Positions 941 to 9,456 of a DNA stretch of 11,815 nucleotides are shown here, one piece after another. The DNA is from a virus. Both the position numbers and the translations under genes were made by a program. The stretch lies in the UHGV virus genome UHGV-0038384; one strand, written 5' to 3'. Under the pieces are notes generated by a model. The model was not told the DNA's origin and searched no databases. It saw only the letters and a program-made list of their open reading frames with translations. Numbering within the stretch: the stretch's first letter is position 1; each line of letters begins with the position of its first letter.

Positions 941-1145
941 GGGATTCACGAGAGTAGTTTAATTTAGCGTGTAACCGCATGATTTTAATAAATATTATTG
1001 ATTCAACTTTTAAACCGTATAACCAAACGTATAACTAAAATAATTTGCTGAAAAAATGCACAATTTAAACGGCGATTGCCCTAGCGACTTCCATGATTCT
1101 ACCTGGATTTTTTTCGCTCATTCGTTTTTAAGCTGGTGGATGTTC

Positions 1146-1171
1146 CCCGATATGGTGATCACCATATCGGG
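1146..1171. promoter_or_regulatory. Perfect 26-bp palindrome, operator-like
   Basis: CCCGATATGGTGATCACCATATCGGG equals its own reverse complement; lies in an ORF-poor region. Confidence 0.4.
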
Positions 1172-1180
1172 ATTTACGCC

Positions 1181-1310
1181 AGGTTAATGTTAACCTCTGC
1201 CCTGTTAACATTTTTACCAAAAAGGTAGTTAACATTTTTTGCTCGCAACCAGATGAATCATAAAGACAAAATCAACAACAACGCTTCATCAGGCAGTTAA
1301 CATGTTAACT
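1181..1310. promoter_or_regulatory. Cluster of GTTAAC-containing palindromic repeats, candidate operator array
   Basis: GTTAAC at 1189, 1204, 1228, 1296 and 1304. GTTAACATTTTT occurs twice (1204-1215, 1228-1239). Perfect 16-bp palindrome AGTTAACATGTTAACT at 1295-1310. Near-palindrome AGGTTAATGTTAACCT at 1181-1196. Confidence 0.35.
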
Positions 1311-1697
1311 ACTACGAAACGGTAATTTTTTCTCTGCGTGAGAGGGGGCGCGGTGTCCAGCTTATTCGTTGTTCGTGGCTAACCACTCCCCCCCCCATGC
1401 CGGATTTTTTTTCCGGTTAACTGTTAATCAGGCTGGTGGGTTTTACCTGTTCTGTAGGAGTGGTCATTATGACCATCCCTTATATCGTCCGAATGCCGGA
1501 CGAAGGCACACATCAACCGTAACGAAAATCGTTATGGTTGCCTTGATGGTCTGCGTGGTCATTATGACCATTCAGCCAATGACCTTAATCAGAATTTTTC
1601 GCTAAAAAATGACGTTGACCACGTCATCCGGAAAGCACAAAATCACGTCGATTTTTAATGGATGGTTAAACCGTCTTTATCTCGATGTCCGTACGTA

Positions 1698-1979
1698 TTA
1701 CGTACGCAGTCGTTCCGGCTTCTTCCAGTGGTACGTTATTTTCTCCTTCTCCCGATACATCTCCACGCGGCGACGGTAGGCCAGCAACTCAAGAACTCTG
1801 GTTCGTATGTTGCGCATATCCACGCCATTAAGTTCTATACCATCACGGCGCATCACCTCAGCAACAACACGCACATAATTTTCAGCGGTCACGCTGTCCG
1901 GCTGTGTGGCCTGTTCGTCATGCTGCTGGCTGATTCCGGTAACGCGGCGGATTAATCCCAGTAGTTCGGCTTCTGTCAT
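1698..1979 (-). CDS. Hypothetical 93-aa protein; first gene on the minus strand downstream of the cosB-like segment
   Basis: ATG at 1979 preceded by a G-run Shine-Dalgarno (GGGGG, about 5 nt upstream); charged, helical-looking translation; no family recognised. Confidence 0.45.
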   Translation of the reverse strand: MTEAELLGLIRRVTGISQQHDEQATQPDSVTAENYVRVVAEVMRRDGIELNGVDMRNIRTRVLELLAYRRRVEMYREKEKITYHWKKPERLRT

Positions 1980-2410: not shown

Positions 2411-2563
2411 ACACTTCCGGTTAACGGGTACGATGTCCGGTTTTAGTGTCTGTTTTTTGCGCATGTCCGGTTCATAGAAAGCATGTTTTTATATTTTTCA
2501 TATGGTTAACTTGCAGAGAAACCGGACATGGATCCCGGAAAATTTTCATAAATAGTGAAAACG
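2411..2563 (-). promoter_or_regulatory. cosB-like segment with three ATGTCCGGTT repeats (candidate small-terminase binding sites) and AT-rich spacers
   Basis: ATGTCCGGTT at 2433-2442 and 2463-2472; its reverse complement at 2520-2529. Minus strand 2563 to 2535 reads CGTTTTCACTATTTATGAAAATTTTCCGG. The arrangement relative to cos copy B resembles lambda R3-I1-R2-R1. Confidence 0.45.
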
Positions 2564-2609
2564 CGCGAGGTCGCCGCCCCGTAACGGGTCCATATGCCGG
2601 AAAGGACCC
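2564..2609 (-). other. Lambda-type cos site copy B (cosQ-like plus cosN), minus orientation, contiguous with the cosB-like segment
   Basis: Reverse complement reads GGGTCCTTTCCGGCATATGGACCCGTTACGGGGCGGCGACCTCGCG. The 25 bp at 2564-2588 are an exact inverted copy of 2035-2059. The cohesive-end 12-mer complement is at 2568-2579. Confidence 0.65.
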
Positions 2610-2611
2610 GT

Positions 2612-2635
2612 AAAAAAAAGCCGGATTTCTCCGGC
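2612..2635 (-). terminator. Rho-independent terminator ending the capsid operon
   Basis: On the minus strand: stem GCCGGA, loop GAAA, stem TCCGGC, then T8; lies just after the stop of the 137-aa gene. Confidence 0.6.
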
Positions 2636-2641
2636 CTTGTC

Positions 2642-3055
2642 TCAGATGGTTTTCAGTATGTGATCGATGTCGCCGTCATCGCCCTGGTTTCTGCCATCGT
2701 ATGCCATGCCAGCTGATACGGCTTGCGGGCTGTGCATGTCCATAAAGTTTTCAAAGGCTGCGGTAAGCTCTGGTGCAACCTTTGGGCGCTCCTGCTCTAT
2801 GGTCATGTTCAGGATTTCACGAGCATTATCGACGCTAATACATGGCACGTTTGCCATTGCACGTAACAGCGGCTGATAGTCGTTATGTTCATGAAGCGCC
2901 ATAATCGCATCAGCGCGCGGCTTGTCCTGTTCTTCCAGTTTGTTGAGTTGATATACGGCCTCGTAGGTTGATAACCCTCTGTCAGCCATTGCCCGCGCTT
3001 CGGCTTTAAATTTACTCGCCAGCGGTAGCGCCATGATGCTTTCATTCGTTGCCAT
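2642..3055 (-). CDS. Hypothetical 137-aa acidic protein, last gene of the capsid operon next to cos
   Basis: ATG at 3055 with an AGGGGGA Shine-Dalgarno 5-6 nt upstream; starts 12 nt after the D-like stop; no family recognised. Confidence 0.5.
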   Translation of the reverse strand: MATNESIMALPLASKFKAEARAMADRGLSTYEAVYQLNKLEEQDKPRADAIMALHEHNDYQPLLRAMANVPCISVDNAREILNMTIEQERPKVAPELTAAFENFMDMHSPQAVSAGMAYDGRNQGDDGDIDHILKTI

Positions 3056-3067
3056 CGTTCCCCCTGC

Positions 3068-3403
3068 TTATCGGGCCAGCGGCTGAACGGATACGCCAGA
3101 ACCCGCAAAGGCGGCGCATTTTTTCGCATCGGTGTCGACGCTCTCAGGCCAGTTAACGGCGGCGATATTGAATATCCCCGTCTTATAGCACTGTGCTGAT
3201 TTCTGCGTCGACGTGTCAACGGGGTACGAGGTCAGATAAACAGCCTTGCCAGATTCCTGACCATCCCACGGCTTAAACTCGCCATTGTCCGCCAGCATCA
3301 GCGGGGTAAATTCCTGAATAACGCCAGCATCAGCGGCAAAATGTACCAGCGTCGTTGATACCTGCTGACTGCCTGCAAATAACTCAATGTATGGAGTGTT
3401 CAT
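3068..3403 (-). CDS. Head decoration protein, lambda gpD family
   Basis: Motifs TPLMLADNG...WDG, YKTGIFNIAAVNWPES and KKCAAFAGSGVSV align with my recollection of lambda gpD (TPLMLD...WDG, YKSGTFRYEDVLWPEA, KKRTAFAGTAISIV). ATG at 3403 has a GGTGGA Shine-Dalgarno; an alternative GTG start lies at 3412. Confidence 0.75.
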   Translation of the reverse strand: MNTPYIELFAGSQQVSTTLVHFAADAGVIQEFTPLMLADNGEFKPWDGQESGKAVYLTSYPVDTSTQKSAQCYKTGIFNIAAVNWPESVDTDAKKCAAFAGSGVSVQPLAR

Positions 3404-3414
3404 AGAATCCACCG

Positions 3415-4470
3415 TTAACCAATTTTGACGGTAACAAATTTGCGAATATCTGCCGGAACAGGCTGCGGTGCGCTGTGTGTCTGCACGTACTCAATCGCCG
3501 GATCGCCGTCTTCAATCCAGTTTTTCGGGTAAAACATGTTTTGCGTTGCGCCCGTTCTTACCGCTTCCTGTTCCATAATCGCACCATAGGCCACCAGCCC
3601 TTTATTGTTGGTGTTGCCCAGGACCAGCAAATCAGGCTCAAGGAAATATTTTTCTGTGCCGTCGCTGTCAGTGTATTTGCCGGAATAGACGATAAGGGCC
3701 AGATCACCAAGATAGCCTTTAAAGCTCACCACTTCTCCCAGGTTTTTACATGCCAGCTCTGCGGCGGATTCTGAACCACGGGAGAGATCGTACAGTTCAC
3801 GGAATTTTTTAAAGCTGCGTAACATGCGCCATACATCAACGCCCATAATCATGACGTTTGCGGGGCAACCTGCCTGATCTGCGTATAGCTCAATGTCATA
3901 GATTGGGTCGTGTATGTCTTTGTCCTGCTCTGACCATTTTTTACCGTCGGCCTGCTCTATGATGTTTTTTTCCGGTATCTTCCAGTCGATTTCATAGCGC
4001 TCTATGCCTTCGCCCTCAATGATGTTTTTTCCGGTCGTTACCGCATTTACCGCCAGCCATTCCACGCGCGCTTTAATGGCGTTTATCTGGCGGCGCATGT
4101 TGCCAGTAATCAGGCGCATACGGCGGTAGGTAGGGTCGTTAAGCTGTGCTGGATCTTCTCCAGCCATGCGCATTATTGTTTTTAATGGATCGATTTCGTG
4201 TTTTGGCTTCATGTAGCCAGGGCGAATAATGCTTGTTTCGTACCCTTTATCGCGCTGAACCTGGCTACCCACCATAGGCGAACAAAACGCCGACATAGTG
4301 ACTTCTTCAATATCCAGGTTATCTAACATGATGTCCTGTGTGTTGAATGTCGCCACGTTCGGGAAAAACAGCGCGGTAAACAGCGGACTGAATTTAAATT
4401 CCGCAATATCCTCGCGATTCAGGTACGCAAAAAGCTGGTTAGTGTTAAGTGATATTGCTTTTACTGTCAT
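3415..4470 (-). CDS. Major capsid protein, lambda gpE family
   Basis: 351 aa. FKFSPLFTALFF, PGYMKPKHEIDP, WSEQDKDIHDPIYDIELYA and YPKNWIEDGDPA match lambda gpE as I recall it (FKFDPLFLRLFF, PGYVKPKHEVNP, WSKRDKSTYDPTDDIEAYA, YPKNWVTTGDPA). Start overlaps the upstream stop as TAATG. Confidence 0.85.
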   Translation of the reverse strand: MTVKAISLNTNQLFAYLNREDIAEFKFSPLFTALFFPNVATFNTQDIMLDNLDIEEVTMSAFCSPMVGSQVQRDKGYETSIIRPGYMKPKHEIDPLKTIMRMAGEDPAQLNDPTYRRMRLITGNMRRQINAIKARVEWLAVNAVTTGKNIIEGEGIERYEIDWKIPEKNIIEQADGKKWSEQDKDIHDPIYDIELYADQAGCPANVMIMGVDVWRMLRSFKKFRELYDLSRGSESAAELACKNLGEVVSFKGYLGDLALIVYSGKYTDSDGTEKYFLEPDLLVLGNTNNKGLVAYGAIMEQEAVRTGATQNMFYPKNWIEDGDPAIEYVQTHSAPQPVPADIRKFVTVKIG

Positions 4471-4676
4471 TATTCACCCCCGTGAACCTGATTCATACCC
4501 AGCGCCGCGCGTAAATAGGCGCGTACCTGCCAGCCTGTTGACGGCTCAACCATCGCCAGCGGATCAAGTCCTGCCGCAATGCCTGCTTTTACGTTCTGCT
4601 GGTGGCGTTCCTTGAGCGCCTTCACGATGTCGGGGCTTATGTACACCGAAACACCGCCTTTTTTCTCTTCAGCCAT
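4470..4676 (-). CDS. Hypothetical 68-aa protein translationally coupled to the E-like capsid gene
   Basis: ATG at 4676 with an AGAGGAA Shine-Dalgarno; its stop overlaps the E-like start (TAATG at 4468-4472); no family recognised. Confidence 0.5.
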   Translation of the reverse strand: MAEEKKGGVSVYISPDIVKALKERHQQNVKAGIAAGLDPLAMVEPSTGWQVRAYLRAALGMNQVHGGE

Positions 4677-4733
4677 AGTAAGAAATTCCTCTTTGACTTA
4701 AAAAATCATAACTGGATGTTCATCCAGATCTGA

Positions 4734-8612: not shown

Positions 8613-8898
8613 GTGAAAGGCTCCTACAGTAATTTTAAGGAGTCTCGCTACTACGCTGTCAAACATGGTGGCGAGACGTAACAGGGTTGACAGACTGGCA
8701 CTGTAGAGACCAGCGAGCGCAAAGGCTCCCCCGTTACGCCCCGCCATAATGCGGGTATGGGTAGGTTTACGGACACAAAAAAACCGCATATCGGAATGTA
8801 AGCGGCTGTCCGCTACAGTATTCAGGCTGTCAAACCCGGTCGCCATGTGGGCGACGGGGGAAGCATACAGCCCCGTGATAATTTTTTGCAAGCGGTTT

Positions 8899-9087
8899 TT
8901 ACGCATGATGTGACCCCTGACGAATACGAGCGGCAAATACAGCAACACAACCTGACGGGCAACGGCTACGCGCTTCGCGTTCTGTCCAGGCGGTTACGTG
9001 GATGATTTGAGATTCTGACGCGCCAAAGATGATAAAGCGCCAGATAAATGCGGTTTGAGAATGTACAAGGGTAGGGATAGTAGCCAT
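8899..9087 (-). CDS. Small repeated protein, unit 2 (62 aa), possibly Icd-like
   Basis: GAGGAGG Shine-Dalgarno 8 nt before ATG at 9087. Translation MATIPTLVHSQTAFIWRF...VTAWTEREARSRCP...FAARIRQGSHHA. Confidence 0.4.
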   Translation of the reverse strand: MATIPTLVHSQTAFIWRFIIFGASESQIIHVTAWTEREARSRCPSGCVAVFAARIRQGSHHA

Positions 9088-9456
9088 GTTGGCAGCCTCC
9101 TCAGTGTGGTTAAGATAACCGCCACGCAAAAGGCTAATTTCGCTGGTGGCGGACTGTACAGGGTTAGCCTTACCGGACACTGAAGAAACCGGCGCGGATT
9201 GCTCCGCCCCCGTACAGCCCACCATTGATAAGGTGTGACTATGCGGCACAAAAAAACACGCGGGGCGCGTGCTGTGCGCTTCAGTTGTTTTCAGGAGGCT
9301 AATCCCGACACCCGTTTTATGAGGTGCGCGGGAATCATAGCCATTTTTGCTGGTGGCGATCAAGCGGTTTTTTTCTCCGGCACTCAGTGCCAGAAAACGC
9401 CACACAAAGGCCGTTTGTGTGTGTACAAGGTGTGGTATATGATTTACGGCAACCAT
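9088..9456 (-). CDS. Small repeated protein, unit 1: N-terminal homologue with a degenerate tail, fused in frame to unit 2 with no stop of its own
   Basis: AGGAG Shine-Dalgarno plus ATG at 9456; MVAVNHIPHLVHTQTAFVWRFLALSAGE parallels the unit 2 N-terminus; the frame stays open to the unit 2 stop at 8899. Confidence 0.25.

Follow-up and report, generated by a model that had tools for sequence, protein, structure and literature searches.

Chromosomal setting and motif content of the island end

The stretch of DNA analysed here (UHGV virus genome UHGV-0038384, 11,815 nt; denoted the window, to which all coordinates refer) contains, at 1100–1710, a palindrome-dense interval beside the gene ORF93, and within it a block at 1186–1403 that is the subject of this work. 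Judged from its sequence, the window is a phage-inducible chromosomal island (PICI) of the EcCICFT073 family, lying between yejO and tRNA-Pro. The island measures ∼ 11.4 kb and has int at one end, which fits the PICI size class (∼ 10–15 kb). A 99.9% identical island is found in Escherichia coli S1-CAM-02-A between the yejO pseudogene and tRNA-Pro (proL). Every gene of that island is on the minus strand; they encode an integrase, a helix–turn–helix regulator, Icd-like proteins, a primase, SSB, PerC, a major capsid protein, a head-decoration protein and proteins of 137 and 93 aa. The gene order in the window is that of EcCICFT073 [PerC, a 68-aa open reading frame (ORF), capsid, decoration, a 137-aa ORF and ORF93]; 2.2 kb (2533–4700) are 94% identical to the end of the EcCICFT073 island, and ORF93 is 89% identical to its counterpart there.

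Chromosomal core sequence, which 5,408 of 5,426 E. coli genomes share, ends at 946. The crossover core CACGAGAG occupies 947–954 and, as comparison with the empty K-12 site shows, recurs in the 3′ end of tRNA-Pro, such that it is present at both junctions of the island. Arm-type repeats (CGTATAACYAAA) are located at 1013–1040, with matching copies beside int. Because the 946/947 junction, the core and the arm repeats all map to the left of 1100, the recombination module lies outside the palindrome region. An attachment or site-specific recombination site was one of three functions offered for 1100–1710 in an initial annotation of this DNA, and the proximity to the island end and the many inverted repeats are in keeping with it. 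The true att elements are placed elsewhere, however, and the sequence at 1130–1450 is common to islands at other chromosomal sites; we regard the chance of an att function as practically negligible. The final 9 nt of the tRNA 3′ end, which the empty K-12 site has, are missing from attL. On locus L001 the att elements (core and arm-type repeats) are found at 23130–23180 and about 23314–23321. The left flank (1–847) is the 3′ part of the yejO autotransporter pseudogene, with an internal stop, and two terminator-like hairpins (857–890 and 909–940) immediately precede the island junction.

The motifs listed in the initial annotation are all present, most of them far above chance. The perfect palindromes of 26 bp (1146–1171) and 16 bp (AGTTAACATGTTAACT, 1295–1310) are the only even palindromes with arms of at least 8 in the window (shuffle mean 0.10). 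GTTAAC occurs at 1189, 1204, 1228, 1296, 1304, 1416, 2420 and 2505, and we found two further copies at 3152 and 3414; dinucleotide shuffles give 3.1 ± 1.7, and 0 of 200 reach the 10 observed. Six of these lie within 610 bp (about 0.16 expected), and five of the six sit in a longer box, GTTAACAT(T/G)T, all within 125 bp. The 17-mer GTGGTCATTATGACCAT is duplicated (1460 and 1555) and contains the 15-bp palindrome TGGTCATTATGACCA; no other 17-mer occurs twice in exact form in the window (shuffle mean 0.01). The C9 tract (1388–1396) and the 8+1+8 palindrome at 1690–1706, which overlaps the ORF93 stop codon (1698–1700, minus strand), are likewise as described. The repeated 11-mer TTCCGGTTAAC (1411 and 2415) exists but is not remarkable, the window having 87 identical 11-mer pairs (∼ 18 in shuffles). 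A 23-nt direct repeat, D1, at 1132 and 1432 had gone unnoticed; it begins with the Chi octamer GCTGGTGG. The description of the region as an array of conserved, mostly palindromic sites of the protein-recognition type holds, whereas none of the three functions named for it does.

Homology of the block to the HNH–terS region of lambdoid phages

Read on the minus strand, the block follows the order of a phage intergenic region: G-tract, core, A-tract, GTTAAC boxes. Its elements are as follows.

1186–1403, minus strand: block homologous to the HNH–terS intergenic (presumptive cos) region, ∼ 80% identity to lambdoid prophages
1185–1194, minus strand: box 1, GTTAACAT (GTTAACATTA), 100% identical to the phage copy and invariant in 72 unique sequences
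1204–1213, plus strand: box 2, GTTAACAT, invariant and 100% identical to the phage copy
1228–1237, plus strand: box 3, GTTAACAT, invariant and 100% identical to the phage copy
1295–1310, both strands: boxes 4 and 5, head to head, forming the palindrome AGTTAACATGTTAACT; invariant
1316–1360, minus strand: invariant core, GAAACGG-AATTTTTT-CTCTGCGTGAGAGGGGGCGCGGTGTCCAG, identical at 43 of 44 positions (1317–1360) between satellite and phage
1388–1396, plus strand: C9 homopolymer (a G-run on the packaging strand), starting 29 nt from the core

A sensitive search with 1125–1460 of the window matched 1,481 of the 5,426 E. coli genomes, at up to 10 places per genome; most matches span 1186–1360 only, at ∼ 80% identity. 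In O157:H7, ST131, BP-4795 and a UK coliphage the match falls inside the 288 bp that separate an HNH endonuclease gene from terS. In every inspected case an HNH endonuclease gene lies on one side of the match, and terS, terL, a capsid gene and a portal gene follow on the other. Matching phage records number 93, most of them from phages encoding Shiga toxin (Stx; Stx1a 36, Stx2c 17, Stx2/Stx2a 19); BP-4795, YYZ-2008, 2851 and 1717 are further matching phages. NZ_CP145707.1, the chromosome closest to the window, has three block-matching places, two of them besides the island and known by the match only. The phage TerL matches HK97 TerL (6z6d, E = 2e-9), the TerS belongs to Pfam family Terminase_2 and the third gene encodes an HNH protein.

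The position of the region in phages is fixed. The 27-nt core was located at 108 loci in an IMG/VR scan; 80 of these were retrieved, and core occurrences were counted over all fetched DNA. Both HNH and terS flank the core at fixed distances (terS ATG 218 nt, HNH stop 71 nt) in 97 of 117 occurrences; 12 are cut by contig ends and eight adjoin ORF93 and so lie in satellites. In the satellite the upstream place is held by ORF93 and the downstream place by att. A scan of genome contigs with AGTTAACATGTTAACT returned chance matches in unrelated taxa only.

Alignment of satellite and phage copies identified the five boxes, the 16-bp palindrome, a 44-nt stretch (GAAACGGnAATTTTTTCTCTGCGTGAGAGGGGGCGCGGTGTCCAG) and the C-run as common elements. 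Identity is 74% over 1186–1396 (∼ 26% difference overall) and is unevenly distributed: when the window is aligned with an O157 prophage, the boxes agree at 100% and the core at 43/44 positions, the spacers at 40–66%. Boxes and core do not vary among the 72 unique sequences, and all five boxes are kept in 164 of the 166 phage copies and in each of the nine satellite copies. The core includes a T6/A6 tract (1326–1331) and a GC-rich stretch (1340–1358). In the HNH-to-terS direction the arrangement is a G-run, a 29-nt spacer of constant length and free sequence, the GC-rich GGACACCGCGCCCCCTCTC, the A6 tract and the box array. The IHF consensus WATCARNNNNTTR does not occur in the region.

Length variation of the C9 tract, which the initial annotation had anticipated, was found: the run measures 5–13 in phage copies (mode 7–8) and 7–9 in satellites, counts that include some duplicate contigs and, possibly, sequencing errors. 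The 99.9% identical island has C8, compared with C9 in the window. The run starts 29 nt from the core in 9 of 9 satellites and 136 of 166 phage copies (27–30 nt in the others), so that its near edge is fixed relative to the core and its far edge moves. It lies in no promoter and in no ORF besides a small one of 78 aa. This plus-strand ORF, which spans the length-variable run, has no Pfam or PHROG match and was rejected as a gene, as was a 43-aa plus-strand ORF, also with no match in either database.

Two further functions had been proposed for the array. The first is a multi-operator control region, in which a repressor or activator would bind the GTTAAC palindromes. Repeated palindromic hexamers with conserved flanks are compatible with this idea, and two boxes of the phage copy happen to make up a weak promoter-like match (9/12), which runs antisense to the genes. 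In the window, however, the corresponding two boxes stand one base too far apart, and 1100–1600 contains no promoter-like site; the only one in 850–2700 is a weak 9/12 match at 1615–1643, fewer than in shuffles. Moreover, the phage copy is inside the late operon, where only the terS start, 75 nt beyond the last box, is there to be governed, and in the satellite only att lies downstream. We therefore consider transcriptional control highly unlikely. The second is a structured RNA, for which we considered the 3′ untranslated region of ORF93 and a small RNA. The minus strand does fold far better than shuffled sequences (z = −6.65), but such stability is expected of DNA palindromes, and the stems are the invariant GTTAAC boxes pairing together. 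No Rfam match was found in 1100–1710 even at E ≤ 1, and the satellite–phage consensus fold has a covariation term of only −1.2 kcal/mol, with double changes in 2 of 40 pairs. An RNA function is extremely unlikely.

A presumptive captured cos site

We read the block as a cos site because the phages that carry it encode an HK97-like TerL, because its place is between HNH and terS and because the HK97 genome ends between the same genes. It is likely that 1186–1403 was captured from lambdoid phages with HNH, Terminase_2 TerS and HK97-like TerL, and that it now resides in a PICI that also has two lambda-type cos sites [cosN GGGCGGCGACCT at 2044(+) and 2568(−)]. The initial annotation recognized lambda-type cos sequence to the right but missed the homology of 1186–1403. 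The island can probably be packaged by two kinds of helper phage.

The following mechanism is proposed. After induction and replication of the island, an oligomer of the helper TerS would bind the five GTTAACAT boxes, which would act as the cosB equivalent. TerL and the HNH protein would then nick the invariant GC-rich core, the cosN equivalent, 29 nt past the G-run and before the A6 tract, and the island concatemers would be packaged leftwards, via att and int, into helper capsids. The boxes are thus putative TerS sites, the GC-rich stretch 1340–1358 the putative cleavage site (cosN) and the G-run a candidate upstream cos element. By analogy with known cos sites, the nicks would be staggered and give cohesive ends at the block. 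Helper-mediated transfer that depends on the block is suggested, indirectly, by an island at clpS–cspD (L121), which has no lambda cosN anywhere and in which the block is the only recognizable cos.

The closest described layout is that of HK97, where cos cleavage is HNH-assisted and TerS binds just downstream of the cut (PMC11331095, PMC9410871). The HK97 genome ends exactly between the HNH gene and terS. The two systems share this position, a homologous TerL and a succession of G-run, ∼ 30 nt, GC-rich cut region (GACCGCCGCC vs. GGACACCGCGCC) and, within ∼ 15–30 nt, an A/T tract where HK97 TerS binds. HK97 has a G9 run, 29 nt, GACCGCCGCCAAA and then the cut, with a T7 tract at +24 to +30. The last 60 nt of HK97 (NC_002167, L011) include G9 followed by ATCA, 42 nt before the cos cut; block-type phages have G5–13 followed by ATCA, 29 nt before the invariant core. 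HNH-type phages may have the G-run in common as a cos element not described before. HK97 differs in that its TerS is of another family, that it has no GTTAAC box array and that its terS is 50 nt from the cut, compared with 218 nt from the core in block-type phages. The HK97 cos was reportedly described by Juhala et al. in 2000.

Several observations weigh against a functional cos. The resemblance to HK97 is one of layout only, the sequence similarity not being significant: local alignment to the HK97 cos scores no better than shuffles (24 vs. 22 ± 3.8), and the ungapped identity anchored on the G-run (31/90, p about 0.03) is exceeded at other offsets. No phage record starts or ends at the block, all 94 being given in prophage order. 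Analogy is the sole basis for placing the cut and for taking the boxes as TerS-binding sites. A full-text literature search yielded no paper with the motif strings and no description of an Stx-phage cos. The TerS relatives in viral contigs are all at least 95% identical, which leaves no site–protein co-variation to score. The block is also dispensable for the family, being present in 3 of 51 sampled relatives (IMG/VR satellites with ORF93 and at least 600 nt downstream) and, in its satellite-type form, in 42 of 5,426 E. coli genomes, including E. coli 042. Lastly, L121 encodes a capsid–protease fusion unlike the capsid protein of the putative helpers.

The main rival to the captured cos site is an inert relic: a satellite would once have recombined with a helper prophage and would now carry the block without using it. 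Most relatives, among them the experimentally mobile EcCICFT073, lack the block; the lambda-type cos sites of the window island could suffice; and the satellite copies are so alike (94–100% identical) that a single recent spread could account for them. Without use, however, a relic should degrade uniformly, and at ∼ 26% satellite–phage divergence the boxes are still 100% and the core 43/44 identical. The near-identical copies also occur in islands that differ in integration site (at yejO/proL, or adjoining a tRNA-Ile gene or clpS) and in capsid module (lambda-like capsid genes, Nu1-type TerS or a protease–capsid fusion); the block is thus an integral, mobile part of the satellites. The sole recognizable cos of L121 again tells against a relic, as does the state of rppA. 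This gene, which EcCICFT073 needs for efficient use of its cos1 (PMC6739421), is reduced in the window to its last 23 codons [RppA residues 123–145; 2280–2348(−)], so that there is no intact rpp. We judge a relic unlikely.

Alternatively, the block could be a decoy that titrates or misdirects the helper TerS, TerL or HNH protein and so hinders phage packaging, instead of or besides serving the island. Homology and conservation would be the same as for a packaging site, TerS is a known point of attack at which PICIs disturb helper packaging (PMC6739421), and the island has lost rppA. Present data do not separate a decoy from productive packaging, but a complete and correctly ordered cos would be cut and packaged, and we find a decoy function quite improbable.

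Satellites that carry a helper cos are already known, namely P4, SaPIbov5 and EcCICFT073. The cos of P4 is a copy of that of its helper, P2. P4, as is presumed for the window island, uses an unmodified helper cos, and C4/CI-type RNAs like those of P4 are present in the island too. The two are unrelated in the sequence of their cos and in the class of terminase. EcCICFT073 has functional helper-type cos sites adjoining the same genes as in the window (PMC6092414, PMC6739421), and its rppA product redirects lambda TerS to the island's own cos1 (PMC6739421). The two islands agree in having a helper-type cos at the int-distal end and two lambda-type cosN (Fillol-Salom et al., 2018, PMC6092414; 2019, PMC6739421). 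They differ in that the block would be a third cos, of another class (HNH, Terminase_2 TerS, HK97-like TerL), which EcCICFT073 does not have, and in that EcCICFT073 cos1 has a PICI-specific cosB read by Rpp–TerS, whereas the block keeps the presumed TerS boxes of the phage. SaPIbov5 of Staphylococcus aureus, as represented in the two sources that cite it (Quiles-Puchalt et al., 2014, cited in PMC6092414 and in the cf-PICI preprint), has an HNH-type helper cos. As depicted there it resembles the window island in being a satellite with the cos of HNH-dependent helpers and more than one packaging signal; it belongs to another phylum, shows no sequence relationship in what those sources give, and combines pac and cos instead of two cos classes. 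Its cos function was demonstrated experimentally according to the same sources, while that of the block is deduced from comparison. A literature search found no description of EcCICFT073-family PICIs with an HNH-class cos that accompanies lambda-class cos sites and forms a separate insert within Chi-bearing backbone, and no map of the cos region for this Stx-associated phage family.

With these findings, 600 bp of unassigned 'non-coding' DNA become a packaging signal that is open to testing, and the phage family gains a candidate cos map (boxes, core, G-run). They suggest that some E. coli PICIs may exploit two terminase classes, the second being that of widespread lambdoid prophages of O157:H7, other enterohaemorrhagic E. 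coli and ST131, including Shiga-toxin converting phages. If the block is functional, islands could move by, and compete with, Stx-phage induction, which bears on the spread of virulence genes.

Satellite backbone, Chi sites and other island features

The remaining features of the island end belong to the satellite and not to the phage-derived block.

1132–1139, plus strand: Chi GCTGGTGG, left copy, start of the 23-nt D1; kept in satellites with the same att-proximal end type
1146–1171, both strands: 26-bp GATC-centred perfect palindrome; satellite backbone, outside the phage-derived block
1400–1416, both strands: hairpin CCGG-T8-CCGG, right boundary of the block; found with 1416–1445 in 533 of 5,426 E. 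coli genomes
1416–1429, plus strand: GTTAACTGTTAAT, with the sixth GTTAAC; backbone, also in block-less satellites
1432–1439, plus strand: Chi GCTGGTGG, right copy, an exact octamer in the backbone motif ATCAGGCTGGTGGG
1440–1697, both strands: variable spacer between ORF93 and Chi with short hairpins and degenerate repeats, 221–757 nt among 31 unique satellites
1460–1476, both strands: 17-mer copy 1, with the palindrome TGGTCATTATGACCA; exact repeat
1555–1571, both strands: 17-mer copy 2; exact repeat
1679–1706, both strands: lineage-specific junction, in which the 8+1+8 palindrome overlaps the ORF93 stop; no alignment to L002, L003, L004 or CFT073
1698–1979, minus strand: ORF93, a conserved satellite protein that always precedes the region (phrog_1561, E = 2e-57)

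In block-less islands the order is ORF93, variable spacer, Chi, GTTAACnGTTAA, hairpin CCGG-A8-CCGG, GATC-centred palindrome, a second Chi (some islands) and att arm. The block occupies the exact junction of hairpin and GATC-centred palindrome: EcCICFT073 lacks 1186–1403 and has 1185 joined straight to 1404. In CFT073 the backbone alone is found next to phoQ. The motif ATCAGGCTGGTGGG lies 198–734 nt downstream of ORF93 in 39 of the 51 satellite loci. Relatives without the block, EcCICFT073 among them, have the 26-bp palindrome in the form CGTTATGGGGATCCCCATATCG or a variant of it; it is imperfect in most relatives, and its centre shows a compensatory change from GGTGATCACC to GGGGATCCCC. GTTAACTGTTAAT is outside the phage-homologous block and resembles the left edge of the block, GGTTAATGTTAAC.

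It is conceivable, with chances that we would put a little short of even, that a portable cos cassette, with Chi and conserved backbone on its flanks, passes between PICIs of the EcCICFT073 family, and that the cassette confers a second packaging specificity, such that the islands are mobilized by lambda/phi80-type and by HNH-type phages (many of them Stx1a, Stx2c and Stx2a phages). If this is true, the cassette would be the main transfer route in islands without rpp or a lambda-type cos, and it could act as a brake on Stx-phage production.

The window contains 13 Chi sites [plus strand: 1132, 1432, 4598, 5240, 7133, 9142 and 9349 (seven); minus strand: 3591, 5099, 5574, 6872, 10009 and 10923 (six)], compared with 0.35 in shuffles. 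Their density in the two islands examined is 1.0–1.2 per kb, as against 0.25–0.6 per kb in the chromosomal flanks and none in the 37.7 kb of a lambda-like CFT073 prophage. Upper-strand Chi acts on RecBCD entering from the right (PMC12315714). The Chi at 1432 is ∼ 600 bp inside the free end that a cut at the lambda-type cos at 2044 would leave, and a cut in the core would yield a box-side end from which the Chi at 1132 lies ∼ 200 bp inwards. The plus-strand pair may therefore stop RecBCD that enters cos-cut ends on the right, a protective role. Rec-less lambdoid phages such as LLS (PMC12315714) are likewise Chi-dense and cos-packaged, have no recognizable anti-RecBCD gene and carry Chi near the cos-cut end in the active orientation; the island differs from them in its nearly equal Chi orientations (seven plus, six minus) and in having cos sites both ways. 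Satellites are not discussed in that study of Chi-rich lambdoid phages (PMC12315714). The abundance of Chi in these satellites suggests a simple means of withstanding RecBCD that needs no Gam-like inhibitor.

Three of the motifs lie outside the cos block: the 26-bp palindrome, the 17-mer pair and the palindrome at 1690 belong to the backbone or to lineage-specific junctions. The 17-mer pair marks the junction of two backbone variants: sequence to the left of copy 1 matches the clpS-type backbone (L004), that to the left of copy 2 (1514–1554) matches the L002/L003 variant, and the clpS-site island has a single copy. No other copy of TGGTCATTATGACCA was found in the island at up to three mismatches, and a TCATwATGA motif occurs once or twice in 29 of 31 unique spacers. 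The spacer has no phage homologue; a search with 1400–1720 gave spurious 36–59-nt matches in lysozyme genes. At the ORF93 junction, L002–L004 have 130–570 bp of other sequence with degenerate 90–130-bp repeats, and CFT073 has other sequence too; the ORF93 C-terminus reads ...RLRT* in the window and ...RLRR* in L002, L003, L004 and CFT073. These degenerate direct repeats downstream of ORF93 (L002 3170–3660, L003 3090–3490, L009 3650–3730) are iteron-like and vary in number; motifs such as CCGAAAATATCAACGGGTTAG and GCAATTTTGnGCTTTGCTTTAA occur in them, as do copies of the ORF93 3′ end.

ORF93 is constantly located between the cos region and the island end. It has 1014 homologues; among the 120 matches listed, identity is 88–100%, nearly all are from E. 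coli and none is functionally named. The AlphaFold model has three helices with a mean predicted local distance difference test score (pLDDT) of 64, and no PDB or Pfam match was found for the protein.

The lambda-type cos copies form a 72-nt inverted repeat (2013–2610), and the segment between them is inverted relative to EcCICFT073. Part of it (2085–2280) is AT-rich with no match in related islands. Three copies of ATGTCCGGTT (two direct, one inverted; 2425–2537) also lie between the cos copies; they are conserved in EcCICFT073 and are candidates for the PICI-specific cosB elements read by Rpp–TerS.

Elsewhere in the island, 8664–9327(−) contains two tandem modules, each with a C4 antisense RNA (75 and 69 bits) followed by an isrK-like RNA (62 and 34 bits), together with a c4 a1/b1 target match, that is, RNA immunity of the P1/P7/P4 type in an EcCICFT073-type PICI. 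The 137-aa protein [2642–3055(−)] belongs to phrog_1999 and also matches the C-terminal part of the head-maturation protease family phrog_53 (E = 7e-10). It would fit a Nu3-like scaffold, adjoining as it does the lambda-like capsid and decoration genes.

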